64,000 bases of DNA from an uncultured Chloroflexia bacterium. Lineage in GTDB: Bacteria; Chloroflexota; Chloroflexia; QHBQ01; JADMIH01. Location of the stretch: the NCBI GenBank assembly GCA_963797095.1, contig CAWCNY010000004.1, forward strand, positions 192,001-256,000. The letters run 5' to 3'. A program made the position numbers and the translations under genes. Shown here one piece after another: positions 3,998 to 33,524 of this stretch (its first letter is position 1; every line of letters begins with the position of its first letter). The notes beneath the pieces are model-generated. The model searched no databases. It was given only the letters and a program-made list of their open reading frames with translations, and had not been told where the DNA came from.

Positions 3998-4201
3998 AGT
4001 TGATTATACTCCCAACGCACTCGATCTTGACAAGGTTCGCGTCCAAGAATAACTGTACCAAAGTACACCCCAAAACCTGTCCCACTTTGTCCCACCAATG
4101 TCATTTAGTTAGCGAGGGCAAGAGTAATCACATTCCTGGTGACCACTCAACATGACGATCGCCGGCTGTACTAAAGTACGCAACTCGCGCCCGCAACCTG
4201 A

Positions 4202-10238: not shown

Positions 10239-11756
10239 ATGGAAACTAAAGAAGCGCCTACTTATGCGCATGATCTGGTTCGTAATTACATAGGCGGCAA
10301 ATGGGTTGAAGGCTCATCGGGAAAGACTTTCGAGAGCAGGAACCCGGCCACCGGGGAGTTGTTGGGCGTACTGACCATTTCTGATGCTTCAGACGTAAAC
10401 AAGGCGGTGGAAGCGGCGGCCAGAGCATTCAAGAGCTGGCGGCTAATGCCCGCGCCCAGGCGAGGTGAAATCCTATTCAAAGCGGGCCAACTGTTGATCG
10501 ACCGGAAAGAGGATCTGGCACGTCTGATGACCCAGGAGATGGGCAAGGTACTGGCCGAGGCACGCGGTGATGTGCAAGAAGCGATAGATATGACCTTCTA
10601 TATGGCGGGAGAAGGGCGCAGGATGATGGGCGAAACCGTCCCATCGGAATTGCCGAATAAATTCGCCATGTCGGTGCGCGATCCTATTGGGGTGGTGGGC
10701 GCAATTACGCCCTGGAACTTCCCCATTGCTATTCCGTCCTGGAAATTGATGCCTGCATTGATCGCAGGTAATACGGTTGTGTTTAAGCCCGCATCAGACA
10801 CGCCTCTACTCGCCCTGGAACTGGTGAAGATCCTGGAAGAGGCAGGTTTGCCGGAGGGCGTGGTAAACGTGGTGCTTGGGCCAGGCGGAACCGTTGGTGA
10901 GGCGATAATCGAGAATCCGACCGTGAAGTTGATCTCGTTCACAGGTTCCACAGCGGCTGGGCAACAGGTTGCCATGCAGGGCGCGAAGACGCTAAAACAG
11001 ATATCGCTGGAAATGGGAGGAAAGAATGCGATAATTGTGCTTGATGACGCCAACCTGGACCTTGCGGTGGAAGGGATATTGTGGAGCGCATTCGGCACCA
11101 CGGGGCAGCGCTGCACAGCGGCATCGCGTGTAATAGTGCAACGTGGCATCCAGCAAGCGCTTCAGGACAGATTGGTGAGCAGGATTTAGAAGTTCCGGCT
11201 CGGCAACGGACTTGAGGCCACTACCGACATCGGGCCCGTGGTGAACCGCTCGCAGCTAAAGCGTATTGACGAGATGGTGCAGGAAGGGATTCGAGGTGGA
11301 AGCGAGCTTGTAATCGGTGGGGAGATAGCCGACGACGGAGCACTGTCGAAGGGCGCGTTCTACAAACCTACGCTGTTCACGAACATGAAGAGCGGCGACT
11401 ATCTTGCCCAGGAGGAGATATTCGGGCCGGTAACAACATTGATCCCCGTGGACACGCCAGACGAAGCCATCCAGGTGAATAACGAGACCAAGTATGGCCT
11501 TTCGTCATCGATCTTCACTGATAATGTGAACAACGCTTTCAAGGCCATGCGCGACATCACCACCGGCATCGTGTACGTAAACGCCGGGACAATTGGCGCT
11601 GAGATTCAACTGCCGTTCGGCGGCACACGGGGCACCGGCAACGGCCACCGCGAGGCTGGTCAGGCCGGACTTGACGTCTTCACTGAATGGAAGACGTTGT
11701 ATATTGATTTCAGTGGTAGATTGCAGCGGGCGCAGATGGATACAGAAGAGATCTAG
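10239..11756 (+). pseudogene. aldehyde dehydrogenase with one in-frame TAG at 11187-11189
   Basis: ITPWNFP, FTGST, LEMGGKN and GQRCTA before the stop; EEIFGPV and PFGG after it in the same frame (11238-10239 = 999). Confidence 0.85.
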
Positions 11757-15321: not shown

Positions 15322-15762
15322 ATGGAAAAGGCTAAGTACCGAGCATACCTGTGTTGCGGGCCGAACTGCGGACCGAAAGGAGCATCGGCGCTAATTGACT
15401 TCCTGGAGGCGGAGCTTGCCCTGCGTGGATTGGAAGAGGTAGTAAGCGTGGCGGCGACAGGGTGCCAGGCACATTGCGAGAGCGGACCAACTATGGTGGT
15501 GTACCCTGGGCCGGTGTATTACCAGGAGATCGACCGGGTACGGCTGGTTCGCATTATTGAAGAGCACCTTGTGTTGGGCGGGCCGGTCAAGGAGTATTTC
15601 TGGAGTGGGGTGCGTAAGAGGATTTTGCCCGACGGAAGGGTTATTATCCCCAAGCGTGTAATCATGCCCGAGGATGGTGATGCGTTGCCCAGCGCTGAGC
15701 AGGTCATACGGAAGCGCAAGGCAAAGAAGCCGCCACCGGAAGTTGACGATTTCAAGTGGTAG
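15322..15762 (+). CDS. thioredoxin-like [2Fe-2S] ferredoxin
   Basis: CCGPNC ... TGCQAHCESGPTMVVYP ... IIEEHL pattern. Confidence 0.85.
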   Translation: MEKAKYRAYLCCGPNCGPKGASALIDFLEAELALRGLEEVVSVAATGCQAHCESGPTMVVYPGPVYYQEIDRVRLVRIIEEHLVLGGPVKEYFWSGVRKRILPDGRVIIPKRVIMPEDGDALPSAEQVIRKRKAKKPPPEVDDFKW

Positions 15763-16792
15763 CAGGCTCGACTAGCTCGACCTTACGCCTTGGATGGTGC
15801 GCAACGGATAGAGGGCGAGCAATTCTGGTGAAAAGGAGCATTGCGAGCAGTGCTAGCAGGTGCTGGTAGGTCAATTGAAGGTAGTAACCGGCGAAGGGCA
15901 AGAGTAGCATACCCAGCCCGACGTTGGCATCGCCGAAGGGGAAGTGGCCGTTTGCAGATCTTGCAAAACAGGTCAGGAGAGTGTAAAGGTAGAGGGCGAG
16001 GGAGATTGCATAGAGGGGCCAGGGAAGGTAGAGGGTAAAGCCGACAGACCAGATTGAGAAGACTCCGGTAAAGCCCTGATTTGCGATAATGTCGGCGATA
16101 TTGCCCGCCGAGAATAAGAGGGCGACAGTCAGGGGGGCGATCCAGCGCCTGGTGCTGCGCCAGCCTGTGCCAGGCAGGGCAATTGCTAAAAAGAGCGCAA
16201 TCGGGACCAGGACGGCGGCAAGCTCACCGAATTGGAGGGCGTCGACGGGATTGTCGAGGAGGGTACCGGTGCCTGGTACACCACGGATCGAGAGTAAGAT
16301 CGCCCAGTACCAACCTGTGTAGGCCAGCGCAAGAAGTAGAACCGAGGCACGAGCCGCCCAGGAGACGGGCCTGACTATGAAGCGAATCGCCAGCCACCAG
16401 ATAGCGATGGCCGAGAATAGGTTAAAGGTTACGTTCAGCCAGTCTTGATCGCCGGAGAGGACAAGAAGGGTAAGGAGAGTGTAGGCGAGGGCAAAGATGG
16501 CAAAGACAGAGAGGTAGATAGCCAGCGCCAGATCCGAGACGCGCCGCCAGTGATAAGCTCGCTCGCCAAATTGAAGGGCTGAGATGACGAGGAGGGCTAC
16601 GGCGAGCAGGAAGGCGGTCGAGAGGAGGAAGAAGCCTATACGCCCAAGAGTTTCGATTATGGTGCGGGCGATGCCTTCAATAGGGGGAGCCGCCGCAAGA
16701 CGCGAAACTACTCTACCAAGCAGCCATTCCAGCCCGCCGACCAGCATAACTCCGATTGCCAGGAAGCGAGCAAGCCACGCACGCTCATCCAT
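15752..16792 (-). CDS. multi-pass membrane protein
   Basis: 346 aa with ~9-10 hydrophobic segments; overlaps the upstream ORF. Confidence 0.75.
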   Translation of the reverse strand: MDERAWLARFLAIGVMLVGGLEWLLGRVVSRLAAAPPIEGIARTIIETLGRIGFFLLSTAFLLAVALLVISALQFGERAYHWRRVSDLALAIYLSVFAIFALAYTLLTLLVLSGDQDWLNVTFNLFSAIAIWWLAIRFIVRPVSWAARASVLLLALAYTGWYWAILLSIRGVPGTGTLLDNPVDALQFGELAAVLVPIALFLAIALPGTGWRSTRRWIAPLTVALLFSAGNIADIIANQGFTGVFSIWSVGFTLYLPWPLYAISLALYLYTLLTCFARSANGHFPFGDANVGLGMLLLPFAGYYLQLTYQHLLALLAMLLFTRIARPLSVAHHPRRKVELVEPATT

Positions 16793-17162
16793 TGAGCGCA
16801 GTGTCCACCGCCCGCTCTGAGAGGCCCCAGATGAAGATCATTCCCAGGCCGTAAAGCATTGACTCGCGCACCGTGTTGCTGCCCCTGGTGATGGCAAAGA
16901 TCCCAGGGATGGTGAGGACGATTGAGATGCCGTAGAGGAGGTGCAACCAGCCGCGAGCAGGCTGAAGGCCGGCCAGGACGAGCACCATGCCCACTATCCC
17001 TTGCAAAATGAAGAGGCCCACACCGATAGCCAGAGCGCCATTGTAGTTACCATCCGGAGGTTGACGCCGCAGAAAATTGAACAGCCCCCAGGCACCTACC
17101 AAAAGGGCATAGATAGCGATCATGTTCGAGAATGTCCGGTGAATATCAATGAGCCACTGCAT
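16785..17162 (-). CDS. small 4-TM membrane protein
   Basis: four hydrophobic segments; WLHLLYG motif. Confidence 0.75.
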   Translation of the reverse strand: MQWLIDIHRTFSNMIAIYALLVGAWGLFNFLRRQPPDGNYNGALAIGVGLFILQGIVGMVLVLAGLQPARGWLHLLYGISIVLTIPGIFAITRGSNTVRESMLYGLGMIFIWGLSERAVDTALNG

Positions 17163-21307: not shown

Positions 21308-22195
21308 ATGGCTACACGCTCGCTGCGCGACAGAGGGCGAATACCAAGCCCGGCTGATCTCTATGGGAGGTTACCCGGCTGGATTCGCACACCTTTAGGC
21401 AAACTGGGTGCAGTACTCAAGCGCACCTGGGAAGATGTGTCCGGTTCGATTATCCGGAACGGATGGCCTAACTCGGTGCGTGGCCGTTCCCTGGCGGTCA
21501 TGAACAGCGTATTCTTGCATTTGCACCCGATACGCACCCGCGCCGATGCAATCAAGATGACGTATACGTTCGGCCTGGGAGGGATATCGTTCTTCCTCTT
21601 CCTGTTGCTTACTCTCACCGGCGTGCTGCTGATGTTCTACTATATCCCGTCGGTAGACCAGGCGTGGCAGACCATGAACCAGATCAAGGACGATCAACCG
21701 TTCGGCTGGTTCCTGAGGAACATGCACAGGTGGGGCGCACATGCCATGGTGATTACGGTGTTCTTCCACATGTGCAGGGTGTTTTATACAGGTGCATTCC
21801 GCGCTCCGCGACAATTCAACTGGGTTGTAGGCGTGATATTGCTGGTGCTTACTTTTCTGTTGAGCTACACAGGCTACCTTCTGCCTTGGGACCAGCTTTC
21901 GTTGTGGGCGGTGCAGGTGGGTGTGAACATGGTTGGCTCAACGCCGCCACCGGCTGTTGGTGACTTTGTGAAGTTCATGCTGATTGGAGATTACTCGGTT
22001 GGGCAAAATGCGCTGATCCGGTTCTATACGTTACATGTGATAGCGCTACCGCTGCTGCTATCGATATTCCTGGCCGTTCACTTCTGGCGAATTCGGAAAG
22101 ACGGCTTCTCCCGAGGGCTCACATTTACGTCCAGGATCATGGAGCACGCTGATACACGCACAGCGGGCGAGCGTGCGGCAGGTAGAGGGAAATAG
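21308..22195 (+). CDS. qcrB: cytochrome b6-like subunit (N-terminal, split cytochrome b)
   Basis: GLGG, RNMHRWGAH...HMCRVF, TGYLLPWDQ and RFYTLH...VHF haem-ligand motifs. Confidence 0.93.
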   Translation: MATRSLRDRGRIPSPADLYGRLPGWIRTPLGKLGAVLKRTWEDVSGSIIRNGWPNSVRGRSLAVMNSVFLHLHPIRTRADAIKMTYTFGLGGISFFLFLLLTLTGVLLMFYYIPSVDQAWQTMNQIKDDQPFGWFLRNMHRWGAHAMVITVFFHMCRVFYTGAFRAPRQFNWVVGVILLVLTFLLSYTGYLLPWDQLSLWAVQVGVNMVGSTPPPAVGDFVKFMLIGDYSVGQNALIRFYTLHVIALPLLLSIFLAVHFWRIRKDGFSRGLTFTSRIMEHADTRTAGERAAGRGK

Positions 22196-22206
22196 GAGGC
22201 GCACAC

Positions 22207-23100
22207 ATGGCATCCATTGGCGACCGACTCCCTCAAACGAGGGAACCTAACGTAACAAGCACTCCCGGCGCAAGGGTGTTGACCCCGCCGGCAAGGACAC
22301 GCCCCACAACGCCGGCTGAACAGGAAGCGGGAACTGTACAGGTTTGGCCGCACCTGGTCGTAATCGAATTTCTGGGAGCATTGATCATTACGCTCAATAT
22401 GATCTTGCTGTCGACGCTGTTTAACGGGCCGTTCCTTGATATGGCGAACCCGGACAAGACGCCGAACCCATCGAAAGCCCCGTGGTACTTCCTCAATCTC
22501 CAGGAACTGCTTCTGCACATGAACCCTGCGCTAGCGGGCGTTATTGTACCTACAATAGCCCTGATCCTGATCGCGGCGATCCCCTATGTGGACCGTGGCG
22601 CGAAGGGTTTGGGAGTCTGGTGGTATAGCGAGAGAGGCCCTAAGATCGCGCTGTTCACGGTTGTCTACACTACAGTTGTCACCGGATCACTTATTGCGCT
22701 TGACAAGTTCTTCCCTCTGAAGGCGAACTTCAGCATCTGGCTTCGAACCGCAGATACTCAGGTAGCCGGAGCGAGTGCCGATGATGGACCGCTCTCACCG
22801 ATTACCTACTTCATAGCGAATACCCTTTTCAACGGAGACCATGCGGTGGCACTGGGTGTGCTGCAAGAGGCCATTGTAGGCTGGATCATTCCGACGATCT
22901 GCTTCGCATTCTTTCCAACTCTGCTTGTGATCCTTCTCAAGCGAGTGTTCAAAGGGGCCGACCTCACCGAGATCATAATTGGGCTCTTTACGGGGTTTGT
23001 TACGCTTTATCTGGTGCTCACGTTCGTCGGAACGGCAATGCGCGGCACCAGTATGGACCTTTACCCTCCTTGGGCTTTGCCTCCCAACCAGGAAGGATGA
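22207..23100 (+). CDS. cytochrome b6f subunit IV-like protein (C-terminal part of cytochrome b)
   Basis: WPHLV..E, ANPDKTPNPSKAPWYF (PEWY equivalent), IPYVDR. Confidence 0.88.
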   Translation: MASIGDRLPQTREPNVTSTPGARVLTPPARTRPTTPAEQEAGTVQVWPHLVVIEFLGALIITLNMILLSTLFNGPFLDMANPDKTPNPSKAPWYFLNLQELLLHMNPALAGVIVPTIALILIAAIPYVDRGAKGLGVWWYSERGPKIALFTVVYTTVVTGSLIALDKFFPLKANFSIWLRTADTQVAGASADDGPLSPITYFIANTLFNGDHAVALGVLQEAIVGWIIPTICFAFFPTLLVILLKRVFKGADLTEIIIGLFTGFVTLYLVLTFVGTAMRGTSMDLYPPWALPPNQEG

Positions 23101-23187
23101 CCTGGGACAAAATCAATAGACGGAAAGAGGAATGCGGAGTAAGAGAACGGTCATCCATGACGGGTCGTCGGAAAAGAGGAGATAAGT

Positions 23188-23772
23188 ATGCAAAGAATGG
23201 CAGATACAAGACGAGAAACATTGACGCCCAGAACGGGAGTTGATGCGCCAAACCGGCCTGAAGATACGGCGGGTGGGCGCACAGCCCCCAAAACGCGACG
23301 TGACGTGCTGAAGTGGGGCCTATTCGGCTCGCTTCTGCTGATGGTCGGAGGCTTCGGCTATTCCTTCCTTCAGTTCTTTACTCCCAAGAAGGTGGGCACC
23401 TTCGGTGGCAAAGTAACAGTACCGATTACATTGGCCGATCTTCCGGTCAATAGCGATCCATTCAGGGTCCGCGAGGGGAAGTTCTATCTCGTGCATATCC
23501 CTGAAGGATTGCTCGCTCTCTACTGGAAGTGCAAACACCTGGGATGCACGGTGCCCTGGAAGCCGGACGAGGAATTTCAGGGACAGATCGGCATTTTCCA
23601 CTGCCCGTGCCACGGCTCGATCTACCTCAGGAACGGGCAAAATGTGGCTGGACCGGCCCCCGCGCCGCTTGACCTGATGGCGATTGACCTTTCAGGCGGA
23701 AAGATCGTGGTAGATACAGGTAAGATCACCACTAGAACCAGGTTTGAGCCTTCACAGGCCGTCAAAGTCTAG
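23188..23772 (+). CDS. qcrA: Rieske [2Fe-2S] protein
   Basis: Tat-like TRRDVL plus TM helix; CKHLGC and CPCHGS boxes; GPAPAPL. Confidence 0.95.
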   Translation: MQRMADTRRETLTPRTGVDAPNRPEDTAGGRTAPKTRRDVLKWGLFGSLLLMVGGFGYSFLQFFTPKKVGTFGGKVTVPITLADLPVNSDPFRVREGKFYLVHIPEGLLALYWKCKHLGCTVPWKPDEEFQGQIGIFHCPCHGSIYLRNGQNVAGPAPAPLDLMAIDLSGGKIVVDTGKITTRTRFEPSQAVKV

Positions 23773-23881: not shown

Positions 23882-24754
23882 ATGCGTGACAAAGTAGTGC
23901 TGGGTGTAACCCTTGCCATCGTGCTGCTCTTGACGTTGGTGATCTACGGAATCGTAGATACCCAGCGCACTCCGAGCCTCCAGGCCTCCGACCTGGAGCG
24001 TATGGTCGATAAGGGGCAGACGATTTACGCGCAATACTGCATTCAATGCCACGGGCCGAGAGGCGAGGGGTGCATTGGTCCTGCGCTGAATCGAGAAGTC
24101 TGGCATCCGGAACTTGCAAATGGAGATAAGAACACCAATTTTGATGACGCCAGCCACGATTTCATCAAGAAGGTCGTAGAGCGTGGCCGCCCTTCGAACC
24201 AGCCTGGTATGCAAATGCCCTCATGGTCGATAAATGAAGGCGGCGCACTGAACGATGAGGATATAGAAGATGTCATCGCGTTCATACAATACGGCAACTT
24301 CGACACCACGTTGGAAGATGCCGCATCCGCAACGGGATTGAACGAGGCATTCCCCACATTTCCGGGATTCCAGGACACAGCACAGATCGCTCGCGTGAAG
24401 GAAGTAATGCTGGCAAAGGGATGCCTAAACTGCCACACTCTGGGCAAGGGTGGCGGTAAGATAGGCGCTGACCTGACCGACGTGGGCAGCAGGCGCACAG
24501 CCGATTGGATCCGTAAGTGGATCGACAATCCGCCCGCCGTGCCGGCTTCGCAGCGTGGGCCTAATCTGTGGCTTGTGGGTGTGACGGCGACAGTGCCGGT
24601 GCCTGGATTGACGCCCCAGGCCAACACCTCTCCTACGGCGACGCCGCAGCAGTTCCCGATGAATACTACTTATATGCCCAAGATCGCTATGACCCAGGAC
24701 GAGTTGAACTTGCTCGTGGACTATCTCTCGCACGCGCGTACGACCACCAAGTAG
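23882..24754 (+). CDS. membrane-anchored dihaem c-type cytochrome
   Basis: N-terminal TM; CIQCH...MPSW and CLNCH...MPK. Confidence 0.92.
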   Translation: MRDKVVLGVTLAIVLLLTLVIYGIVDTQRTPSLQASDLERMVDKGQTIYAQYCIQCHGPRGEGCIGPALNREVWHPELANGDKNTNFDDASHDFIKKVVERGRPSNQPGMQMPSWSINEGGALNDEDIEDVIAFIQYGNFDTTLEDAASATGLNEAFPTFPGFQDTAQIARVKEVMLAKGCLNCHTLGKGGGKIGADLTDVGSRRTADWIRKWIDNPPAVPASQRGPNLWLVGVTATVPVPGLTPQANTSPTATPQQFPMNTTYMPKIAMTQDELNLLVDYLSHARTTTK

Positions 24755-24781: not shown

Positions 24782-25669
24782 ATGGCCGCTCTGGGTGCGG
24801 TAGTCAAGAAGACCGAGGAAGGGCTGCGTTTGACAGCTAAAGGGCGTGCGCTGGCTATTTTCAGCGTGGTGCTGATACTTGGATTCGCGCTGGCGACGCT
24901 CAATGTACCGCTAGCATCGTCGGCGGCCAATGCTGTGGAAGTGCAGCATATAACTCAGGCCGTGCCTACCGACCCCCAATCGCCGCTGTGGGACCAGGCT
25001 ACGGAAGCGCAGATACCGCTGAGCGCACAGCAGATGCAACAGCCCGGTGGTGGAACCACCCGGGCCGTGTATGTGCGGGCACTTGAAGATGGCATGACTT
25101 TCGCGATCAGGGTTTCATGGGACGATGACACTAAGAACGAGACTGTCGGAAGCCTACCGAGTGATGCGGCGGCTATTCAATTGCCAATCGACCCACAGCA
25201 TCTCCCCTATCAGTGCATGGGGCAGAGCACCAGCCGGGTAAATATCTGGCAGTGGAAGGCAGCACTGGAGAAGGAAGCCGGTGAGACGCTGCCGACCACG
25301 GGAATGGAAGGGGGAGCGAGAGACCTGACGAGCAACGGGATCTGCAAGGCTGTCGAAACGAATGGCATAGGACCATCAGCCAGGTCGTATCACGACGGCA
25401 AGCAATGGCATGTTGTGTACTGGCGGCAACTTTACAAGGGAGACCTGGTCACAGCGCCAATAATAAGGGAGGCCAACACTTCTATTGCCTTCGCGGTGTG
25501 GAACGGAGCCAACGGCGAGACGCGCGGGATGAAAGCAGTCTCAACCTGGAACACATTAACGTTCCAAACGCCACCTGTGAACAGCGCCGCCGGACTGGTA
25601 ACAGTGGCAGCCGTTGTGCTCGTTTCAGCTGGAATCGTAGGCTGGGCCATGCGACGCTATGGCAGGTAG
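24782..25669 (+). CDS. EbdC/DOMON-type haem b-binding protein (ethylbenzene dehydrogenase gamma-like) with N- and C-terminal TM segments
   Basis: SWDD, DAAAIQLP, CMGQ, VNIWQWKA and FAVWNG...KAVSTW motifs of this family. Confidence 0.8.
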   Translation: MAALGAVVKKTEEGLRLTAKGRALAIFSVVLILGFALATLNVPLASSAANAVEVQHITQAVPTDPQSPLWDQATEAQIPLSAQQMQQPGGGTTRAVYVRALEDGMTFAIRVSWDDDTKNETVGSLPSDAAAIQLPIDPQHLPYQCMGQSTSRVNIWQWKAALEKEAGETLPTTGMEGGARDLTSNGICKAVETNGIGPSARSYHDGKQWHVVYWRQLYKGDLVTAPIIREANTSIAFAVWNGANGETRGMKAVSTWNTLTFQTPPVNSAAGLVTVAAVVLVSAGIVGWAMRRYGR

Positions 25670-25762: not shown

Positions 25763-27247
25763 ATGAGCGTAGTAGCGAGAGAGTTCGAGACCACACGACC
25801 GGGGTTCCTGACTGCCGAAGGCAGCGCATCGCGCAACTTTCTATATTCGGCGATATTTTGGCTTACTTTAGCTGACTTTGTAGGGCTGATCGCGGCGATG
25901 GAGATGATCAGCCCGGATTTCCTGGCAGGCATTCCATATCTGACATTTGGGCGTCTCAGGCCGATGCACACCAACGGTGTGCTGTTCATGTGGCTCTCGA
26001 TGGCCCAGATCGGGGCGTTCCTTTACATTGTTCCGAAGTTATGCGGTGTCAAGCTGTTTAGTGAAGTATTGGGCAATGTGGTCATGATCCTGTGGAACAT
26101 GGTCGGGATCGCCGGATACATTACCCTTTCGCTTGGCCTAACCCAGGCAAGAGAGTATGCTGAGCTAATCTGGCCGATTGATGTCATGGTCCTGGTCGGG
26201 CTACTGCTTACAGGCTACAATATTTACAAGACGATATTCAGCCGCAAGGAAAAGAAACTATACGTTTCTTTGTGGTACATCATGGGCACGCTTGTATGGA
26301 TGCCGATGCTTTACTTCGTGGGAAACGTCATGTGGCAGCCACTATTGCCCAACAGCGATCCCGGCATCCCCAGTCTGCAATCGAATATTGCGGGCTTCCC
26401 GTCAGGGAGCTTGAACGGTATCGACGATGTGACCTGGCAGTGGTTCTATGGGCATAACGTGCTTGGCTACTGGTTCACTACATCGGGGGTGGCTATAGTC
26501 TATTACCTTGTGCCGGTCTTGACGCGCTCCCCGCTTTACAGTCACCTGCTATCATTGATTGGGTTCTGGTCCATTGCCTTCTTCTACGGGTTGGTAGGCC
26601 AACACCATATCCTGCAAACGCCAACGCCAGGCTGGCTTAAGACGCTGGCTGTAGTTGGCTCGATCGGCCTTTTTATTCCAGTCTTTACGTTCCTGACGAA
26701 TATCTGGCTCACGATGAGGGGCAACTGGGGGAAGATATACGAAAGTCTGCCACTCAAATTTGTGATGGTGGGCAGTATCTTCTATTTCGTGACGTGTGTG
26801 CAAGGCCCTATGCAGGCGATTCAGGGATTCAACCGCCTGATCCACTTCACCAACTGGATCGTTGGACATGCTCATCTGGCGCTGCTCGGCACGTTCTCGT
26901 TCTGGGCCATGGCGGCTATCTACTATATCATTCCGGTTACCCTCAAGCGCAGGATATATAGTCCGGGGCTTGGTGAGGCCCAGTTCTGGATGATAACAAT
27001 CGGCTTCCTCTTGATGATGATCTCACTGCAAATAGGTGGCCTTGTACAGGGTGCAATGTGGCTCAACGGCGACACGGTGTACAAGGTGCTGCCCGAACTT
27101 AAGCCTTATCTGGTTATCAGAGCCGTGTCGGGCGCAATGATAGTGATTGCAGGGATTATGCAGGCCTGGCAGATATACAAGACTGTGACAGTGGGTGAGC
27201 CGATCACCGTGAAAAGCCCGGCAACCGCAGCAGAATCGATTAGCTAA
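25763..27247 (+). CDS. ccoN: cbb3-type cytochrome c oxidase subunit I
   Basis: FGRLRPMHTNG, REYAELIWPID, WFYGHN, FY..VGQHH (CuB) and WIVGHAH. Confidence 0.95.
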   Translation: MSVVAREFETTRPGFLTAEGSASRNFLYSAIFWLTLADFVGLIAAMEMISPDFLAGIPYLTFGRLRPMHTNGVLFMWLSMAQIGAFLYIVPKLCGVKLFSEVLGNVVMILWNMVGIAGYITLSLGLTQAREYAELIWPIDVMVLVGLLLTGYNIYKTIFSRKEKKLYVSLWYIMGTLVWMPMLYFVGNVMWQPLLPNSDPGIPSLQSNIAGFPSGSLNGIDDVTWQWFYGHNVLGYWFTTSGVAIVYYLVPVLTRSPLYSHLLSLIGFWSIAFFYGLVGQHHILQTPTPGWLKTLAVVGSIGLFIPVFTFLTNIWLTMRGNWGKIYESLPLKFVMVGSIFYFVTCVQGPMQAIQGFNRLIHFTNWIVGHAHLALLGTFSFWAMAAIYYIIPVTLKRRIYSPGLGEAQFWMITIGFLLMMISLQIGGLVQGAMWLNGDTVYKVLPELKPYLVIRAVSGAMIVIAGIMQAWQIYKTVTVGEPITVKSPATAAESIS

Positions 27248-27302: not shown

Positions 27303-28355
27303 ATGCACCAACAGGGTGGAGCTGTATTCAGGATGGACCCACGCACCGTGTTTATCGGAGCGCTGATAGTCTTCGCATCAATTATCTTCGTCGTCACCAC
27401 GCTTCCATACCTGACTTTCAACCCGCCACGCTCGGCGGACGCCCGTCCACTGACGGAGCAAGAGGAGCGAGGACGGCGGTTGTACGCGTCTAATGGATGC
27501 TTCTACTGCCACAGCCAGTACCTGCGTCCGCAGGACTGGACGGGGGTTGGTTCCTACCGCACCACAGGGCGAACCGCGCAGGCTGGTGACTACTTCTTCC
27601 AGGAAACCCCTATGCTTGGGACTGAGCGCACAGGCCCTGATCTTTCACAGGAAGGTGGGGTGCATACGGACGAGTGGCATCTAGCGCACTTCTATAACCC
27701 GCGCTGGACTTCGGTGAAATCGATCATGCCTGAGTTCAGTTTCTACTATGATCAAAACCTGGCAGGTGGAATCACTCCCAGCCAGGACGTATACGATCTT
27801 GTCGCATATGTCCAGAGCCTGGGAGGACAATCGGGCGTGGATCGCGCCAATCTCCAGCGCGAGCGGAAACAGACTTTGCTCGATGAGCGGGCTAAAGGCA
27901 ACGATGCGATCATTCACGACTACTTCCCCGCAACATGGCGCACTGTCCGTAACCCCATTGAGCCTACTATTCGTTCGTTGGTGCATGGGAAGCAGGTGTT
28001 CACCACCAACTGCACTGGATGTCATGGGCTTAATGGGGATGGCAAGGGTCCGGCGACGTATTTCATCAATAACCCCGCGCCGAGGAACTTCACCGATGCG
28101 AGCGCACAACTGTTCTTCAGCGATGGCGAACTATATGACGCGATCTTGAGGGGAGTTGACGGCACTGCAATGCCCGCATGGGGCGATATGCTTACCGTGA
28201 ACGACATCTGGGATGTGACCAACTTCATAAGAACAATCCCGAATGGTGGGCTACAGACCAATGACCTTGATGCCTCAATGATGATCAGCCCACCCGATAT
28301 CGTACCAATAGAGGCAACACCGGCTGCAACGCCAAGCGTGAATCCAACTCCATAG
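27303..28355 (+). CDS. ccoO: cbb3 oxidase subunit II (CcoO) fused to a second cytochrome c domain
   Basis: GCFYCHSQYLR, GTERTGPDLS, WHLAHFYNPR...SIMP, YVQSLG; then CTGCHG...AMPAW. Confidence 0.92.
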   Translation: MHQQGGAVFRMDPRTVFIGALIVFASIIFVVTTLPYLTFNPPRSADARPLTEQEERGRRLYASNGCFYCHSQYLRPQDWTGVGSYRTTGRTAQAGDYFFQETPMLGTERTGPDLSQEGGVHTDEWHLAHFYNPRWTSVKSIMPEFSFYYDQNLAGGITPSQDVYDLVAYVQSLGGQSGVDRANLQRERKQTLLDERAKGNDAIIHDYFPATWRTVRNPIEPTIRSLVHGKQVFTTNCTGCHGLNGDGKGPATYFINNPAPRNFTDASAQLFFSDGELYDAILRGVDGTAMPAWGDMLTVNDIWDVTNFIRTIPNGGLQTNDLDASMMISPPDIVPIEATPAATPSVNPTP

Positions 28356-28381: not shown

Positions 28382-28816
28382 ATGAACAGGATCAAACAGC
28401 AATTAGAGCAAATGAGCGGTGCACGGATTGTGCTGATAGTGGGGGTACTTGCTCTCGCACTGGTGCCTGCGCCGGCTTTCGCCCATGATAACCTGGGCGG
28501 CGACGAGCTGGCGGTCGCCAACTGGATGTTCGTGGCTGCGGTGGTGACAATCGCCCTTGGTGCTTTGTGGGCTTTGTGGGCGATCAGATCGGGGCAGTTC
28601 AACAACATAGAGCAATCCAAGTACACGATGCTGGAAAATTCTGAGGATTACGATGCAATTATGGCCGAATATGACGCAAGGGAAATAGCGGCAAAAGAAG
28701 CAAGCAGCCCGAGTAAGACGAACGCGAAAGTGGCACCCGGCGCACCCGTGCAGCCTGACGCAGCCCCCACGCGAAATACGACTGGCACCACTAGCGGTAA
28801 AACCGCCAACGCGTGA
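28382..28816 (+). CDS. CcoS/FixS-like cbb3 maturation protein with an N-terminal signal-like extension
   Basis: TM ending LWAIRSGQFNNIE resembles the CcoS WA..SGQF.D.E motif; AFA-H cleavage-like site. Confidence 0.7.
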   Translation: MNRIKQQLEQMSGARIVLIVGVLALALVPAPAFAHDNLGGDELAVANWMFVAAVVTIALGALWALWAIRSGQFNNIEQSKYTMLENSEDYDAIMAEYDAREIAAKEASSPSKTNAKVAPGAPVQPDAAPTRNTTGTTSGKTANA

Positions 28817-28837: not shown

Positions 28838-29134
28838 ATGTCATTCCCAAATCCCGGCGACCTCATAAAACCCTGGTCATGGAACATCGTTCTAGAAGGG
28901 GTCGTGTGGTTCATTGTCCTTCTATTAACTGTCGGTGTGATAACCTGGACCCGCGCAGGTCGCGATAGGCGGAACCTGCCTGATCAATTGGGACGTAATG
29001 TAGAAGATTTCGCCGGAATTACCCAGGAAAGTAATGGGCGGCTTCCGGGTTTTCTGCTGCTGTTCTATCTGGTGGTGGGGCTGTTCATGCTCGGCTACCC
29101 GATTGTTACTCTCATCTTCAATTACAACTACTGA
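28838..29134 (+). CDS. 2-TM protein resembling the haem-less N-terminal anchor of CcoP (FixP_N)
   Basis: EDFAGITQESNGRLPGFLLLFY resembles H.YDGI.E.DNPLP.WW..LF; AGAGGAG RBS. Confidence 0.6.
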   Translation: MSFPNPGDLIKPWSWNIVLEGVVWFIVLLLTVGVITWTRAGRDRRNLPDQLGRNVEDFAGITQESNGRLPGFLLLFYLVVGLFMLGYPIVTLIFNYNY

Positions 29135-29195
29135 CAATAGGTATCATACGTGGGATAACGCATCTTATGCGATAGATCGCGACGGAGCAATGACG

Positions 29196-29513
29196 ATGGA
29201 ACAGGAAACTCGGCAGCTACAAAATGAAATTCAGGTTGCACACAGGTTTCGGGCAGTAACCGAGCACGAACCACTTTATGGACTTGCACCGGAGCCAGGG
29301 GCGGGCGGACCTGAGAGCACAGGCGACCCGGATCAGCCACTGCGCGAAGTGCCGGTGGAGGAGCCGGAAGCGCCCGGGGAGGAGAGCACGAACCTGACAT
29401 GGGGGATTGTGTTCGGCGGGGTGCTGCTCCTTTTTCTGCTGGTAGCGGTGCTCTATTTTGGGATCGGGAATACTTATTCAACCCAACCCTTCACTTCATA
29501 CCCTCTGAAGTAA
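29196..29513 (+). CDS. small single-TM protein
   Basis: GGAG RBS; acidic, Pro-rich N-terminus followed by a TM helix. Confidence 0.55.
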   Translation: MEQETRQLQNEIQVAHRFRAVTEHEPLYGLAPEPGAGGPESTGDPDQPLREVPVEEPEAPGEESTNLTWGIVFGGVLLLFLLVAVLYFGIGNTYSTQPFTSYPLK

Positions 29514-29537: not shown

Positions 29538-29852
29538 ATGTCAGTAGTTAGAACAATGTCGTTTACCGTCCCGTCAGAGCGCAAGCACGAGCTCAATCCC
29601 GGCCATAATCTCTATCTTGCGGCGGTGCATGGGACACAGTCTGCCGCCCAGAGCGTAGACGGGTACCAGAAGGGCGGGGTGTGGATGCAACGCCAGGCAG
29701 ATGGCTCGGTGAGGGTGTCGATGTTCTCGCAATTCGACGAGTTGGACAATATGGAAAGGTATGCGAATGTACCAATGATCCGTGATTTTGAGAAAGATGT
29801 GACGACATACCTCAGCCCTGTCGATGTTAACGTTTATGAGGTGCTCGGGTAG
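29538..29852 (+). CDS. small dimeric alpha/beta-barrel (ABM-like) protein
   Basis: AGGAG RBS; 104 aa with ferredoxin-like pattern (V..M.F...DGY......V..FSQF......VYEVL). Confidence 0.6.
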   Translation: MSVVRTMSFTVPSERKHELNPGHNLYLAAVHGTQSAAQSVDGYQKGGVWMQRQADGSVRVSMFSQFDELDNMERYANVPMIRDFEKDVTTYLSPVDVNVYEVLG

Positions 29853-29914: not shown

Positions 29915-30109
29915 GTGTTTGGATTCGCCCAATGGGATAGCCCCTTTTCTCTTGTAATCGAAGCAGGTATTTCTGCCCTACTGATCGCAGGATTGCTTGT
30001 CGTGGTGCGGCGCGTGAATGCGCAGGCAGAAGCCGAACGACGCGACAAAAACGATGCAATACAGCATGATGCACTAGAAAGCAGCACAAACAAGCAGAAT
30101 GATCAATAG
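29915..30109 (+). CDS. small single-TM protein
   Basis: 64 aa, one hydrophobic helix, overlaps the next ORF. Confidence 0.45.
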   Translation: MFGFAQWDSPFSLVIEAGISALLIAGLLVVVRRVNAQAEAERRDKNDAIQHDALESSTNKQNDQ

Positions 30110-30647
30110 TATAACGGGCAACCCACGCATAAGGCTGGGTGTATATATCCTGCTTGGTTTTCTCACGTTGGTGATGGTCGCATTGTCAGTGGTCCAACTT
30201 TGGGTCCTGTATAGCACAGAGAATGTGCCAGCCTACGGGAGCATCCAGGCCGACAGCAGGGGTTGGCCGCCCGATAGCGAGCGAGGTGCATTCCTCATAC
30301 TGAACGATCAGCACAGTTCAGAGTACGCGGGAAACCTCGTAGAATTGCTGGCAGTGACCGATCCCGGCGTGATTGATGAGGAGAGCGGCGCGCACTTGCT
30401 GCCGTCGGAACTCAAGTCCATCTTGATCCAATCGGTGGCATTGAATGAACCATCGGACTACCGGGTCGAGAGGCTAGGCGACCCGGAACCTGACGAGATG
30501 GAGTTCGATCCGCAGCCCGGCGGCACGGTAATGTTGATCGCTCCAAAGACGGGGGTTTGGAAGCCGGGAGCTTATATTGTTGACATTCCGGTTGAAGGGA
30601 TGGATGCAGGCAGAACTTATTTTCAGTTCTATGTAGACGAACAGTAA
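30099..30647 (+). CDS. membrane-anchored protein with an acidic, beta-rich extracytoplasmic domain
   Basis: N-terminal TM; C-terminal WKPGAYIVDIP...YFQFYV is Ig-like. Confidence 0.65.
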   Translation: MINSITGNPRIRLGVYILLGFLTLVMVALSVVQLWVLYSTENVPAYGSIQADSRGWPPDSERGAFLILNDQHSSEYAGNLVELLAVTDPGVIDEESGAHLLPSELKSILIQSVALNEPSDYRVERLGDPEPDEMEFDPQPGGTVMLIAPKTGVWKPGAYIVDIPVEGMDAGRTYFQFYVDEQ

Positions 30648-30657
30648 GGGGTCTTTC

Positions 30658-32634
30658 ATGGCGACAATTACGGTTGGAAGCGCCGTCGGTGAAGGCAAGG
30701 CGGTCACAGCGACGGGGCAGCCGCCCGGCCAGGTTAATGAGGAGACAATTGACAACCACGGCCTGCCCAGATTTTTCTTCGCAGCGGCCGCAGCCCTCAT
30801 TCTCAGCGCGACACAAGGAGTGGTGCAAAGGTTACCGGGTATCTCCGATTGGCTGAATGACGCTGATTACGGCGGCCACATGGTGACGAACCTGGCGCAT
30901 ACTCACATCACGATTGTGGGAGCGGGCACTATCAGTTTGACGGGGTTGATCTATTACGTGTTGCCGCGTGTCACAAAGAGGCCACTGTTCAGTCCTGCCC
31001 TGACTAACATATCGTTCTGGGCCACCGTCATTGGAGTGTTCGGGTTCTATATTGCCATGCTTTCGATTGGTATATACGAGGGAATGATGGTCCACGCGGG
31101 TTGGGCGTACGACGCGGCGCGAGATTGGATGGGCGCATGGCACAAAGCACCGATGGCACTGACGGCAGCTGTTATGGGCATAGGGTACTGGACATTTGTA
31201 ACGAATGTATACGTGACCGTTGGGCAGGCATCTGGAGAGCGCAAGATATGGCCTGACAAAGGGCCCAGCAATGGAGAGATGTTGCTGGCCAGGTTCTTCG
31301 TAGTGGGGGCGACGGGGCTGCTGTTCGGCACGGTGCAGGGAGTTTACCAGGTGATGCCCTGGTCGCTTGATTGGCTTCAGAAGACAGGCGACGCGGGCCA
31401 CATGATCGATCCGATGGCACACGCGCACATCAACCTGGTGGGTGGCGTGAGCGTAGCGTTGATGGGGTTGCTCTATTTCTTCATTCCGAAGATAATCGGC
31501 AAACCCATTTACAGCATGAAGCTGGGGGTTTTCAGTTTCTGGTGCATATTGATTGGGGTATTCAGCTTCTATTTCACCGCCATAGGGCTTGGCTGGAGCG
31601 AAGGGCAGATGGTGCTGGATCAAGGAATAACGCCTGTTGAAGCGCAAGCGGCAATGGGCATCTGGCACCCGCTACTGCTTAGTGTCGCCGCAAGCATAAT
31701 GGGGATTGGGTTCTGGTCGTTTATCACGAACATCCTGCTGACGCTAAGGCAGAAAGCCGCGCCCGATGCACCTCCTGATCATAAGCTTTCCGGATTCCTG
31801 GCGTTCAGCGCATTCGCGATTCTCGCGGGAACGATCCAGGGCGTGCTCCAGACCCTGCCGGCCATTGATGAGTGGCTGGAAGAGGCCAACCCGGCGGGGT
31901 ACTTCGTCACACCGCTGTCTCACGCACAACTGAACATGGTGGCTTTCGCCATAATCAGCCTTAGCACACTTATGATCTTCTTACTGCCACGGATACTTGG
32001 CAAACCGGTGGCTGACCCGGTGAGGGGCAGGCGCGCTCTAACGGTGATGGCAGTAGGGATCGTCGCGTCCTATCTAGTCTATTTCGGCCTGGGATTGCTG
32101 GAAAGCATCCAGATACACAACGGACTTACGCCTGCCGAGGCGCGCGAGGCCGTGGCAGGCACAGTGCTGCGTTATGTGCTCTTGATAGGGGCGCAGGGGT
32201 TGCTCGGCGTGGGGTATGTGCTCCTATTCAGGCATGTTTCCTCGGAAATTGGTGCGGAGACAATCCGGGCGTATTTCAGCAAGCTGGGCGGGAGAATGGC
32301 AAGCGCGCTACGGACGAGCGTACGCGTGCACCCTCGTGCGCGGACCGATTCTCCAGTTGTTGCGCTTCGCAGGGGCATCGCCTCGGCATTGCTGGAGTGT
32401 GTGTTCCTCGGCCTGGGGTGGTTTTACAGCGGCAGGCCGTTCATCGGGATAATGATGTTCAGTATTGGCACTATCTACCTGACGATTGTGTATGTAGTAA
32501 TCGCAATCGCAGGCAATGGAGGGCCATTCCTTTCGCTCGGTCTGATATATCTCTCAATGGTGCTGGCGAGCGCTATCACGTGCTACCGGACGTATCTTTT
32601 CTCGGTGCGCGAGGAAAGACCAGAGCCTGCATAG
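30658..32634 (+). CDS. haem-copper oxidase subunit I homologue built from three tandem CcoN C-terminal 4-TM units plus a C-terminal TM2-like domain
   Basis: Three QG..Q..P...W...HxH/HxQ...P....KP units (HTH at 30898, HAH at 31420, HAQ at 31921) align by eye to CcoN QGPMQ...GHAH...IPVTLKRRIYS; no HH CuB motif. Confidence 0.8.
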   Translation: MATITVGSAVGEGKAVTATGQPPGQVNEETIDNHGLPRFFFAAAAALILSATQGVVQRLPGISDWLNDADYGGHMVTNLAHTHITIVGAGTISLTGLIYYVLPRVTKRPLFSPALTNISFWATVIGVFGFYIAMLSIGIYEGMMVHAGWAYDAARDWMGAWHKAPMALTAAVMGIGYWTFVTNVYVTVGQASGERKIWPDKGPSNGEMLLARFFVVGATGLLFGTVQGVYQVMPWSLDWLQKTGDAGHMIDPMAHAHINLVGGVSVALMGLLYFFIPKIIGKPIYSMKLGVFSFWCILIGVFSFYFTAIGLGWSEGQMVLDQGITPVEAQAAMGIWHPLLLSVAASIMGIGFWSFITNILLTLRQKAAPDAPPDHKLSGFLAFSAFAILAGTIQGVLQTLPAIDEWLEEANPAGYFVTPLSHAQLNMVAFAIISLSTLMIFLLPRILGKPVADPVRGRRALTVMAVGIVASYLVYFGLGLLESIQIHNGLTPAEAREAVAGTVLRYVLLIGAQGLLGVGYVLLFRHVSSEIGAETIRAYFSKLGGRMASALRTSVRVHPRARTDSPVVALRRGIASALLECVFLGLGWFYSGRPFIGIMMFSIGTIYLTIVYVVIAIAGNGGPFLSLGLIYLSMVLASAITCYRTYLFSVREERPEPA

Positions 32635-32719: not shown

Positions 32720-32748
32720 TTGACTTCGTGCCTAGGCACGTGTATAAT
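32720..32748 (+). promoter_or_regulatory. sigma70-type promoter with a palindrome in the spacer
   Basis: TTGACT-17 bp-TATAAT; the spacer contains the perfect palindrome CGTGCCTAGGCACG (32727-32740). Confidence 0.7.
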
Positions 32749-32835
32749 CACGCAAATGCCAGGAACGCGCCCATGCTCGAGGCTGTTGGGCAGCGGCTCC
32801 GCAATTACCAACTCTTACGCGTGGAGGTGCTAAAA

Positions 32836-32982
32836 ATGGTCCAAGCTTACTGCGTCAAGGATCGAAAGATGGTTGAGATGAAGAATCCGAGGGAGATCAC
32901 CCTCAAGAATGGGCGCCCGGCCATGCAAGGCGAGTGCCCGCATTGCGGGACCAAAGTCACCCGCATCGGTAGCAGCAAATAG
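32836..32982 (+). CDS. DUF5679-like small basic zinc-ribbon protein
   Basis: AYCVKD..VEMKNP..ITLKNGRPA.QG.CP.CGTK..RIG; GGAGGT RBS; followed by a GAGCGCCCC/GGGGCGCTT hairpin. Confidence 0.8.
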   Translation: MVQAYCVKDRKMVEMKNPREITLKNGRPAMQGECPHCGTKVTRIGSSK

Positions 32983-33140
32983 GTTGTAGAGCGAGCGCCC
33001 CGATATGGGGCGCTTATCCATCACACTTTTACAACCAAATATGCCCCGATCGGGGCCAGCACTTAACGTGGCTTCCCAGCGTCTACCCCTACGTGGAGTG
33101 GATTTTCGGACGCACATGCAATCACACCTGGAGGGTAGCC

Positions 33141-33524
33141 ATGATACCGGCCAGGCAGTATGCAAGGATCGTTGGATCTCTCATTGTGCTACTTGGAATT
33201 GTTGGTCTGTTTGCGGGCGAAGGCCAACTGTTTGGCCTGATCAACATCGATATTGCTGAAGATATCATCCATCTCGGAACCGGTGGATTGATGGTGTATG
33301 TGGGGTTCGGGCAAAGTGATGTGTCACTGGCTCGTACCGTGGTTGGTGGGCTGGGAGTGATCTACCTGCTGGTGGGAATCGTGGGTTTCATCGACAACAA
33401 TGTATTCGGGCTGTTCCCAAGCGGTTATTCGTTGGCCGATAACATCGTACACCTGTTGCTGGGGCTACTTGGCATCGGGGTTGGGTGGTTGTTGACGAGC
33501 AACACTTCGCAGATGAGTGTATAA
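33141..33524 (+). CDS. DUF4383-like 4-TM membrane protein
   Basis: GGAGG RBS; repeated DIIHL/NIVHL motifs in TM helices. Confidence 0.75.
   Translation: MIPARQYARIVGSLIVLLGIVGLFAGEGQLFGLINIDIAEDIIHLGTGGLMVYVGFGQSDVSLARTVVGGLGVIYLLVGIVGFIDNNVFGLFPSGYSLADNIVHLLLGLLGIGVGWLLTSNTSQMSV

Follow-up and report, generated by a model that had tools for sequence, protein, structure and literature searches.

The window analysed here, a stretch of 64,000 nucleotides from an uncultured Chloroflexia bacterium, encodes downstream of a cbb3-type (C-family) oxidase a protein of 658 residues that resembles the catalytic subunit I of that oxidase, and it raises the question of what such a protein, which we call the pseudo-oxidase, may contribute to a cell that already makes the oxidase itself. 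Our answer, to which we give about an even chance of being right as a whole, is that the pseudo-oxidase is a non-catalytic, copper-free paralogue of subunit I that serves the neighbouring C-family oxidase as a haem-binding accessory, most likely as a maturation factor. According to this scheme, a free-standing four-helix module homologous to helices IX-XII of subunit I would have been triplicated and fused, and the fused units would fold into a 12-helix pseudo-threefold ring in which four invariant His might hold two haem b groups (H83 with H255, H257 with H422), the third site having been lost. The resulting protein would act as a dedicated oxidase accessory, keeping hold of haem and/or copper, or passing them on, while CcoN is being assembled, and would do so together with a membrane-anchored CopC/YtkA-like protein encoded 10 nucleotides upstream.

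Internal repeats and fold

The gene and its parts are the following.

30658..32634, + strand: pseudo-oxidase gene, 658 residues, three units of helix IX-XII type plus a C-terminal tail
30763..31257, + strand: unit 1 (U1), residues 36-200
31273..31782, + strand: unit 2 (U2), residues 206-375
31783..32292, + strand: unit 3 (U3), residues 376-545, the fastest-evolving of the three units
32293..32634, + strand: C-terminal tail, residues 546-658, with helices at 566-582, 594-621 and 624-652

The open reading frame (ORF) and every motif quoted for it in the original prediction, a reading of the sequence that preceded this analysis, are present, and the three internally aligned units described there are confirmed by pairwise BLASTP: the repeat, about 165 residues long and present in three copies, shows 39% identity over 158 residues between U1 and U2 (E 9e-43), 30% between U1 and U3 (E 5e-24) and 32% between U2 and U3 (E 3e-26). 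The accompanying claim that each unit matches the last third of the window CcoN stands for U1, which aligns best with CcoN residues 340-432 (E 9e-10), and for U2, which aligns best with residues 327-414 (E 1e-8), but not for U3, which taken alone has no significant match to the window CcoN (E 0.3-0.7); the weaker matches of U1 and U2 to the middle and first thirds of CcoN show the oxidase's own pseudo-threefold repeat. Against the Pfam COX1 profile the whole protein gives three matching stretches (E 1e-25), the best of them placing residues 39-147 on profile positions 310-410 of 436. U1 and U2 submitted singly fall on positions 310-420 (E 1.9e-12) and 310-426 (E 3.5e-10), and U3 reaches just E 5e-5, on the N-terminal third of the profile; at the sequence level, the homology of U3 to the oxidase rests on its likeness to U1 and U2. 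The NCBIfam equivalog model for ccoN, TIGR00780, does not reach its cutoff of 583.15 bits, the score being 44.2.

Conservation was read from 135 retrieved proteins of at least 600 residues, 125 of which cover at least 85% of residues 36-545 and form the set of homologues to which the counts below refer. The tail carries a motif (E580, G585, G587, W588) kept in 123-124 of the 125. It had been called TM2-like, an identity that we have dropped because the TM2 domain (PF05154), the sole family listed for the tail, scores far under its cutoff (E 0.22-1.7, 9.4-12.2 bits against 27.9); a distant relationship is possible.

A structural model was built with AlphaFold2 (AF2) from a 38-sequence alignment, with a mean predicted local distance difference test score (pLDDT) of 88.6 and a predicted template modelling score (pTM) of 0.85, and comprises twelve long helices followed by the three tail helices. 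The top Foldseek matches are exclusively subunit I chains of oxidases or nitric oxide reductases (NOR), namely NorB 3o0r_B and CcoN 3mk7_A and 9g6b_A, with template modelling scores (TM-scores, normalised to the target) of 0.73-0.74 to the NorB and CcoN chains, while VIA-align on the cbb3 CcoN chain 8smr_E gave Z 33.0 at a root-mean-square deviation of 3.1 Å over 429 aligned residues and ranked C-family and NOR chains (Z 30-33) above those of the A and B families (Z 25-28). Residues 27-534 of the model superpose on residues 8-463 of 8smr_E, so that the two chains are collinear, with U1 on helices I-IV, U2 on helices V-VIII and U3 on helices IX-XII. As judged from the model, the protein takes the 12-helix pseudo-threefold fold of oxidase subunit I, in agreement with what had been proposed and with AF2, Foldseek and VIA-align alike. 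This fold, collinear over residues 27-534, is common to the pseudo-oxidase and to CcoN and NorB of the cytochrome c-dependent nitric oxide reductase (PF00115), as is an HxH motif of the helix X type, and the pseudo-oxidase is encoded in the same cluster as CcoN; it differs from both in that all three of its thirds are of the helix IX-XII type, in lacking the helix VII His-His and the cross-link Tyr, and in its extra C-terminal tail.

Ligand positions and the absent copper site

To map the ligand positions, U1, U2 and U3 were aligned with the window CcoN cut into thirds and with eight stand-alone units (single-unit proteins, to which we return below), and HMMER alignments to the solved CcoN chains 3mk7_A and 8smr_E were added. 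Helix 2 of every unit bears two ligand positions, two residues apart, of which the first is the equivalent of the helix II His and of the first helix X His, and the second that of the helix VI CuB His and of the second helix X His. Residue 81 aligns with H60 of 3mk7_A, the helix II His of CcoN, and H255 and H257 align with H345 and H347 of the same chain (the helix X HxH), H257 aligning also with the helix VI CuB His of 8smr_E; H60, H345 and H347 are residues that we take to be haem ligands in 3mk7. Among the 125 homologues, H83, H255, H257 and H422 are His without exception and Q424 is Gln in 122, whereas position 81 is variable (48 His, 30 Gln, 20 Asn, 19 Leu, 5 Tyr, 2 Phe, 1 Trp), so that of the five His plus one Gln originally assigned to these positions four His and the Gln stand and H81 does not. 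Three of the invariant codons are placed as follows.

30904-30906, + strand: H83 codon, unit 1, invariant
31420-31422, + strand: H255 codon, unit 2, invariant
31426-31428, + strand: H257 codon, unit 2, invariant

The helix VII His-His of CcoN aligns with Q317/M318 in U2, with Met/Met in U1 and with Ile/Gln in U3, and the cross-link Tyr, which in the C family lies six residues before the His-His, aligns with L311 (at least 90% conserved) in a register that a nearby gap renders approximate. Since both the His-His and the Tyr are replaced, the CuB site and the Tyr cofactor are absent, and the alignment to the window CcoN thereby bears out what had been said of these motifs. PMC3578206 gives the CuB ligands as His207, His257 and His258; of the CuB ligands, the pseudo-oxidase has the helix VI-equivalent His (H257) alone. 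The equivalent of the proximal His of the high-spin haem, i.e. the first helix X His, is present as H422 (125/125), and the canonical ligand pair of the low-spin haem (helix II His and second helix X His) is not kept, position 81 being variable and position 424 Gln.

In real oxidases a ligand at the first position faces the four-helix arc to which its helix belongs, and one at the second position faces the following arc. Combined with the His pattern, this geometry predicts one haem site formed by H83 and H255 at the interface of units 1 and 2 and another formed by H257 and H422 at that of units 2 and 3; the third pore, between units 3 and 1, has by symmetry mapping lost both of its ligand partners (81 variable, Q424) and is more likely empty than the open haem site that had been envisaged. 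The two degenerate positions are thus the very pair predicted to share one pore. The loop residues W161/H162, over a predicted site, are conserved in 102 and 103 of the 125 homologues, and W336/H337 likewise in 90 and 116, with a variable equivalent in unit 3. When set against CcoN and NorB, the lost site corresponds to the canonical low-spin haem site, and one predicted haem site would lie in a pore that holds no haem in real oxidases. The two haems that these positions hold in real oxidases sit at equal membrane depth, which would permit lateral but not trans-membrane electron transfer, so that the trans-membrane electron wire once suggested for this protein finds no footing.

The same positions bear on two further alternatives. 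A cofactor-less scaffold, or a channel or transporter with an oxidase fold, with its invariant His lining a pore or coordinating a metal ion, would suit a protein whose haem binding is predicted only and whose helices hold conserved polar residues (E315 of unit 2, kept in 118/125, and a QG..Q motif in helix 1 of each of the three units). We consider it decidedly unlikely, given that the invariant His occur exactly at the haem-iron-ligating positions of the homologous oxidase helices and that the paired loss at one predicted site is most simply understood as the loss of a shared ligand partner. A sensor of O2, NO or CO that regulates the oxidase, which the original prediction had also entertained, strikes us as very improbable indeed: H257 acting as a distal residue would, from its homology to a CuB His, leave a five-coordinate, gas-binding haem, but the protein has no signalling output domain, the tail has no significant family, no supporting context was found, and the histidine kinase and response regulator nearby are encoded separately, with inconsistent linkage.

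Linkage to the C-family oxidase and possible roles

A word-indexed search returned 119 clusters at 90% identity, mostly from Chloroflexia and 625-730 residues long, together with longer homologues of about 1,070-1,140 residues from Gaiellales, the commonest database name among named homologues being 'cbb3-type cytochrome c oxidase subunit I', in this or a variant form. With HMMER, 1.84 billion representatives yielded 286 proteins at E <=0.001, 56 of these at <=1e-30, and relatives are encoded by at least 573 stretches of a species-level genome collection. We kept 79 loci of the latter, nearly all from metagenome-assembled genomes; most bear a label of Chloroflexota (Chloroflexia, Ktedonobacteria, Anaerolineales) or Actinomycetota (Gaiellaceae, Solirubrobacteraceae, Thermoleophilaceae), and two of the 79 a proteobacterial one. 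When synteny was scored by tblastn with the window's neighbour proteins, all 42 loci that extend 6.5 kb or more upstream proved to have ccoN and ccoO there on the same strand, and all 57 that extend 3 kb or more to have ccoO; between the end of ccoN and the start of the pseudo-oxidase gene lie 2,724 to 5,334 nucleotides, depending on the locus. Of 201 evenly drawn genomes of the phylum, eight have a CcoN-like gene and four a pseudo-oxidase, the four carriers being the source genome (6.0 Mb, with one A-family oxidase, the window CcoN and one pseudo-oxidase) and three genomes whose CcoN is 61-63% identical to that of the window. The pseudo-oxidase gene strictly accompanies one subclade of C-family (cbb3-type) oxidases, and the presumed linkage to ccoNO is therewith upheld.

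In the window, all genes of the cluster lie on the + strand, where cytochrome b, subunit IV, Rieske, cytochrome c and EB_dh-like genes precede those for CcoN, the CcoO-cytochrome c fusion and a FixS-like protein, followed by three small conserved ORFs, the gene of a 182-residue protein and that of the pseudo-oxidase.

21308..23772, + strand: cytochrome b, subunit IV-like and Rieske genes, conserved in the closest Chloroflexia loci only
23882..24754, + strand: cytochrome c, two c-type matches
24782..25669, + strand: EB_dh / dimethyl sulphoxide-reductase type II gamma-like haem b protein with a C-terminal anchor
25763..27247, + strand: divergent C-family CcoN, catalytic residues complete
27303..28355, + strand: CcoO (FixO) fused to a cytochrome c domain
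28382..28816, + strand: FixS/CcoS-like maturation protein, at the Pfam cutoff (23.1 bits)
28838..29134, + strand: 98-residue membrane protein, conserved in the cluster, no family
29190..29513, + strand: 107-residue small protein, conserved in the cluster, no family
29538..29852, + strand: 104-residue conserved protein, weak Dabb-like match (E 0.013), present in 42 of the 79 related loci
30099..30647, + strand: 182-residue partner protein, membrane helix plus beta-sandwich, stop codon 10 nucleotides before the pseudo-oxidase

In the window CcoN the His of helix VI, the His-His of helix VII with the Tyr six positions ahead of it, and the HxH of helix X are all retained. The Rieske/cytochrome b part is kept only in about 19 close Chloroflexia loci.

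The 182-residue partner is homologous to the segment fused C-terminally in long forms of the pseudo-oxidase (residues 707-856 of P0111, E 1.5e-14; P0150, 9e-11; P0125, 4e-10; P0112, 5e-10; P0128, 2e-9), its matches to six more long forms being weaker or non-significant. A model of the partner family (pLDDT 90.8) consists of an N-terminal membrane helix followed by a beta-sandwich whose nearest fold is that of PcoC/CopC, at E about 0.01 and with TM-scores of 0.5-0.6 normalised to the target, no match attaining E <=0.001; the family profile found 0 matches among Protein Data Bank sequences at E up to 1. The Pfam YtkA-like family (PF13115) matches eight of 20 partner family members (best E 6.5e-6), and FixH one of the 20 (E 0.025). 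In P0134 (878 residues) a SCO1/SenC thioredoxin-fold copper chaperone domain is fused at residues 705-836 (E 1.5e-36), and in Gaiellaceae-type loci (L049, L058, L077) CcmE and/or CcmF are encoded directly downstream of the pseudo-oxidase. Roles of CtaK/YtkA and Sco in the assembly of oxidase copper centres are described in PMC9145763. As a separate observation, the Actinomycetota forms of 1,060-1,140 residues bear, after the beta-sandwich, an extra C-terminal multi-helix membrane region (about 830-1075 in P0110; 9884-13069 in L058) that has no Pfam match at E <=0.01.

Three of these features favour a role in maturation, namely the distal position of the gene after the FixS-like gene, the fusions to chaperone-like extracytoplasmic domains and the presence of neighbouring genes that handle haem and copper, and FixG/CcoG-like genes occur near stand-alone units. 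Of the functions originally put forward, the copper-free haem carrier or insertase for the neighbouring oxidase is still the best reading, with haem binding itself a predicted property.

The main rival to maturation makes the pseudo-oxidase an additional subunit that stays in the oxidase, or in a supercomplex of the Rieske/cytochrome b complex and the oxidase, and would work as a dihaem cytochrome b beside CcoN, either as a lateral electron relay or as a structural bridge. The complete synteny with ccoN-ccoO speaks for it, as do the cytochrome b, subunit IV, Rieske and cytochrome c genes that precede the oxidase genes in a same-strand run in the closest clade and the four invariant His, which are compatible with redox haems. 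We nonetheless find it rather doubtful: the distant Chloroflexota loci and all Actinomycetota loci keep the pseudo-oxidase without Rieske/cytochrome b genes, its fusions are to chaperone-like periplasmic domains and not to cytochrome domains, and CcoN and the CcoO-cytochrome c fusion already look complete. The gene moreover sits at the distal end of the cluster, after the FixS-like and small genes, much as maturation genes occupy the distal end of proteobacterial cbb3 clusters.

CcoG is an Fe-S cupric reductase, and the pseudo-oxidase could conceivably be its haem-based counterpart, an extracytoplasmic enzyme whose haems near the outer face, reduced by quinol or cytochrome c, would convert Cu(II) into Cu(I), which the CopC/YtkA-like or SCO1 domain would pass on for CuB insertion. 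This proposal draws on the fused or adjacent position of the CopC/YtkA-like domain and SCO1, on the FixG/CcoG-like genes that adjoin stand-alone units and on the lack of a CcoG-like gene among the scanned ORFs of the window cluster, the rest of the genome not having been searched for CcoG or CcoI; we hold it to be unlikely, as the partner family has no conserved copper ligands and no quinol site was identified.

To return to the haem-binding maturation factor, several observations weigh against it. The AF2 model holds no cofactors, so that the haem sites are predictions, and H257 is homologous to a CuB ligand rather than to an iron ligand, which means that the H257/H422 site could be five-coordinate or bind something else. 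The window's own copy of the partner has no Pfam match and its family no conserved His, Met or Cys, the invariant residues being L83 and W154, and a copper-chaperone role for this protein is therefore not supported; the SCO1 fusion occurs in just one of the four long forms scanned, and CcmE and CcmF may simply serve the c-haems of CcoO. Strict co-occurrence with ccoN-ccoO fits a permanent subunit equally well, and four of the sampled genomes, with CcoN 33-49% identical to that of the window, have no pseudo-oxidase at E <=1e-20, from which it follows that C-family oxidases in general do not need it. Among the stand-alone units, some (L129, L137, L161) have no oxidase gene within 4.5 kb, and one (P0181) lacks the first His.

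To our knowledge, the insertion of haem b, haem b3 and CuB into cbb3 subunit I is poorly understood, and outside Proteobacteria almost nothing is known about it. Close points of comparison are the proteobacterial ccoGHIS genes (for CcoS/FixS, CcoH/FixH, CcoG and CcoI), which the pseudo-oxidase resembles in lying downstream of the structural genes, a FixS-like gene being present too and the 182-residue partner sharing with CcoH/FixH a single helix and a periplasmic beta-sandwich; the pseudo-oxidase itself has no sequence relationship to CcoG, CcoH or CcoI. A possible functional analogue is Surf1/Shy1, the haem a chaperone of A-type oxidases, which according to PMC9145763 is a membrane protein that binds the oxidase haem through His and is linked to oxidase genes; it differs in its unrelated fold (two helices plus an extracytoplasmic domain) and its specificity for haem a. 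No description of the triple-repeat protein or of stand-alone units was found in the literature covered, subscription journals and theses being outside its scope, and the superfamily survey PMC11214002 contains none of either in its passages on these terms; the statement in the original prediction that oxidase homologues built from such units had been described computationally accordingly found no counterpart there. A conserved, oxidase-shaped, copper-free protein in two phyla is a candidate for missing insertion machinery or for an unrecognised subunit, and its annotation as 'cbb3-type cytochrome c oxidase subunit I' inflates oxidase counts when metabolism is inferred from metagenomes of Chloroflexota and Actinomycetota.

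Some features of the surrounding genes may be recorded in their own right. In the segment 21308-28355, the genes of a Rieske/cytochrome b complex and of a C-family oxidase seem to form a single unit, and the ethylbenzene-dehydrogenase-gamma-like haem b protein within an oxidase cluster is unusual; given the genes for a Rieske/cytochrome b complex directly upstream, a quinol-oxidising role in the window is unlikely. Behind the pseudo-oxidase, at 32728-33524, lie DUF5679 and DUF4383 genes, which are found downstream in 20/79 and 8/79 related loci as well, and in two loci with Chloroflexota and Anaerolineales labels (L050, 7228-8457; L065, 7381-8613) a Peptidase_M29 aminopeptidase gene lies between ccoO and the pseudo-oxidase module.

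Stand-alone units and the origin of the triple repeat

The representative search also yielded complete proteins of 163-231 residues that span exactly one unit, and a metagenome scan brought up at least 456 stretches with a stand-alone unit, a figure that is not an unbiased count since the scan pattern held the His motif. In the 80 loci that were kept, most of the ORFs are closed, 170-210 residues long and situated inside contigs of up to 309 kb. These units correspond to COX1 profile positions of about 305-431 in Pfam. The HxH is kept in all 16 units, stand-alone or paired, that were examined, and seven of the eight stand-alone units from the representative search keep both His. In 15 of the 80 loci an ORF of 455-512 residues lies within about 300 nucleotides downstream of the unit, which in the one annotated locus of these (L087) encodes a full-length COX1 and is followed by FixO and a FixP_N-like gene. 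Five loci have two different units, and four others (L115-L118) turned out to be ordinary members of the triple-repeat family. Taken together with the pseudo-oxidase, the stand-alone 'COX1 C-terminal' proteins of 170-210 residues, annotated, if at all, as partial CcoN or COX1, represent the same module and often adjoin ccoN-ccoO or FixG-like genes; they differ in being single units that keep both His and would need to oligomerise, and in their heterogeneous contexts, with an FGE-sulfatase-like or Bact_hydrolase partner.

The relationship among units was assessed with a quick, unrooted IQ-TREE phylogeny of 89 unit sequences, drawn from 16 proteins of the full-length set of 125, from 23 stand-alone units and from six CcoN divided into thirds. 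U1, U2 and U3 each form one group across both phyla, with support of 100, 98 and 97 in the Shimodaira-Hasegawa-like approximate likelihood ratio test (SH-aLRT), and a branch with support 98 parts these units and most stand-alone proteins from all CcoN thirds, the second paired-unit type falling on the CcoN side. This grouping points to one ancient triplication of a unit of the stand-alone type and leads us to reject a recent duplication of the C-terminus of the neighbouring CcoN.

An extension of this view, which we offer tentatively and hold to be less likely than not, is that the four-helix unit is an autonomous haem-binding protomer. Three copies of a stand-alone unit, or a mixture of the two paired types, would then form a trimeric ring that has the shape of an oxidase but no copper and that binds a bis-His haem at every one of its three interfaces; the 658-residue protein would be a second, independent triplication in which one haem site was lost once the units were fused. 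If so, the stand-alone trimer would show in a present-day protein what oxidase subunit I was like before its triplication, and the 658-residue protein would have retraced the path that led to the catalytic subunit. With stand-alone units as widespread as they are, the long-assumed origin of subunit I by triplication becomes experimentally approachable.

Several observations on the stand-alone loci stand apart from this argument. Two of the loci with two units are annotated (L124, 6947-9275; L127, 6953-9013), and in both a HAH-type unit and a HTH/HGH-type unit flank an FGE-sulfatase-like gene (formylglycine-generating-enzyme fold); two such units with much the same spacing are present in L123, L125 and L128 too, around a middle gene that is unannotated there. 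Elsewhere the unit is paired with a 'Bact_hydrolase' gene (PF20603), the stop and start codons overlapping or adjacent (L129, 6989-8046; L130, 5655-6711; L143, 6785-8012; L161, 7007-8040), and in the first three of these, not in L161, FixG/CcoG-like ferredoxin membrane proteins and spermine-synthase-like proteins of about 870 residues are encoded nearby on the other strand. A lead from look-alike clusters in the ESM Atlas, DUF2871 (PF11070), gives no more than a faint hit, to the second paired-unit type alone (E 0.06; 14 bits, the cutoff being 27.4); it was not found in the source genome, and no functional paper was found among the titles that mention it. Elsewhere in the window, an aldehyde dehydrogenase at 10239-11756 appears as two adjacent ORFs, one of 316 residues (Pfam positions 1-292) and one of 172 residues (311-460), a split that could reflect a frameshift, a pseudogene or a sequencing error. 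On the - strand at 15752-17162, a 124-residue ORF has a partial match to COX15/CtaA (haem A synthase) at E 1.9e-6, under the cutoff, and adjoins a 345-residue ORF of no family, and the two may represent a split or divergent haem A synthase.

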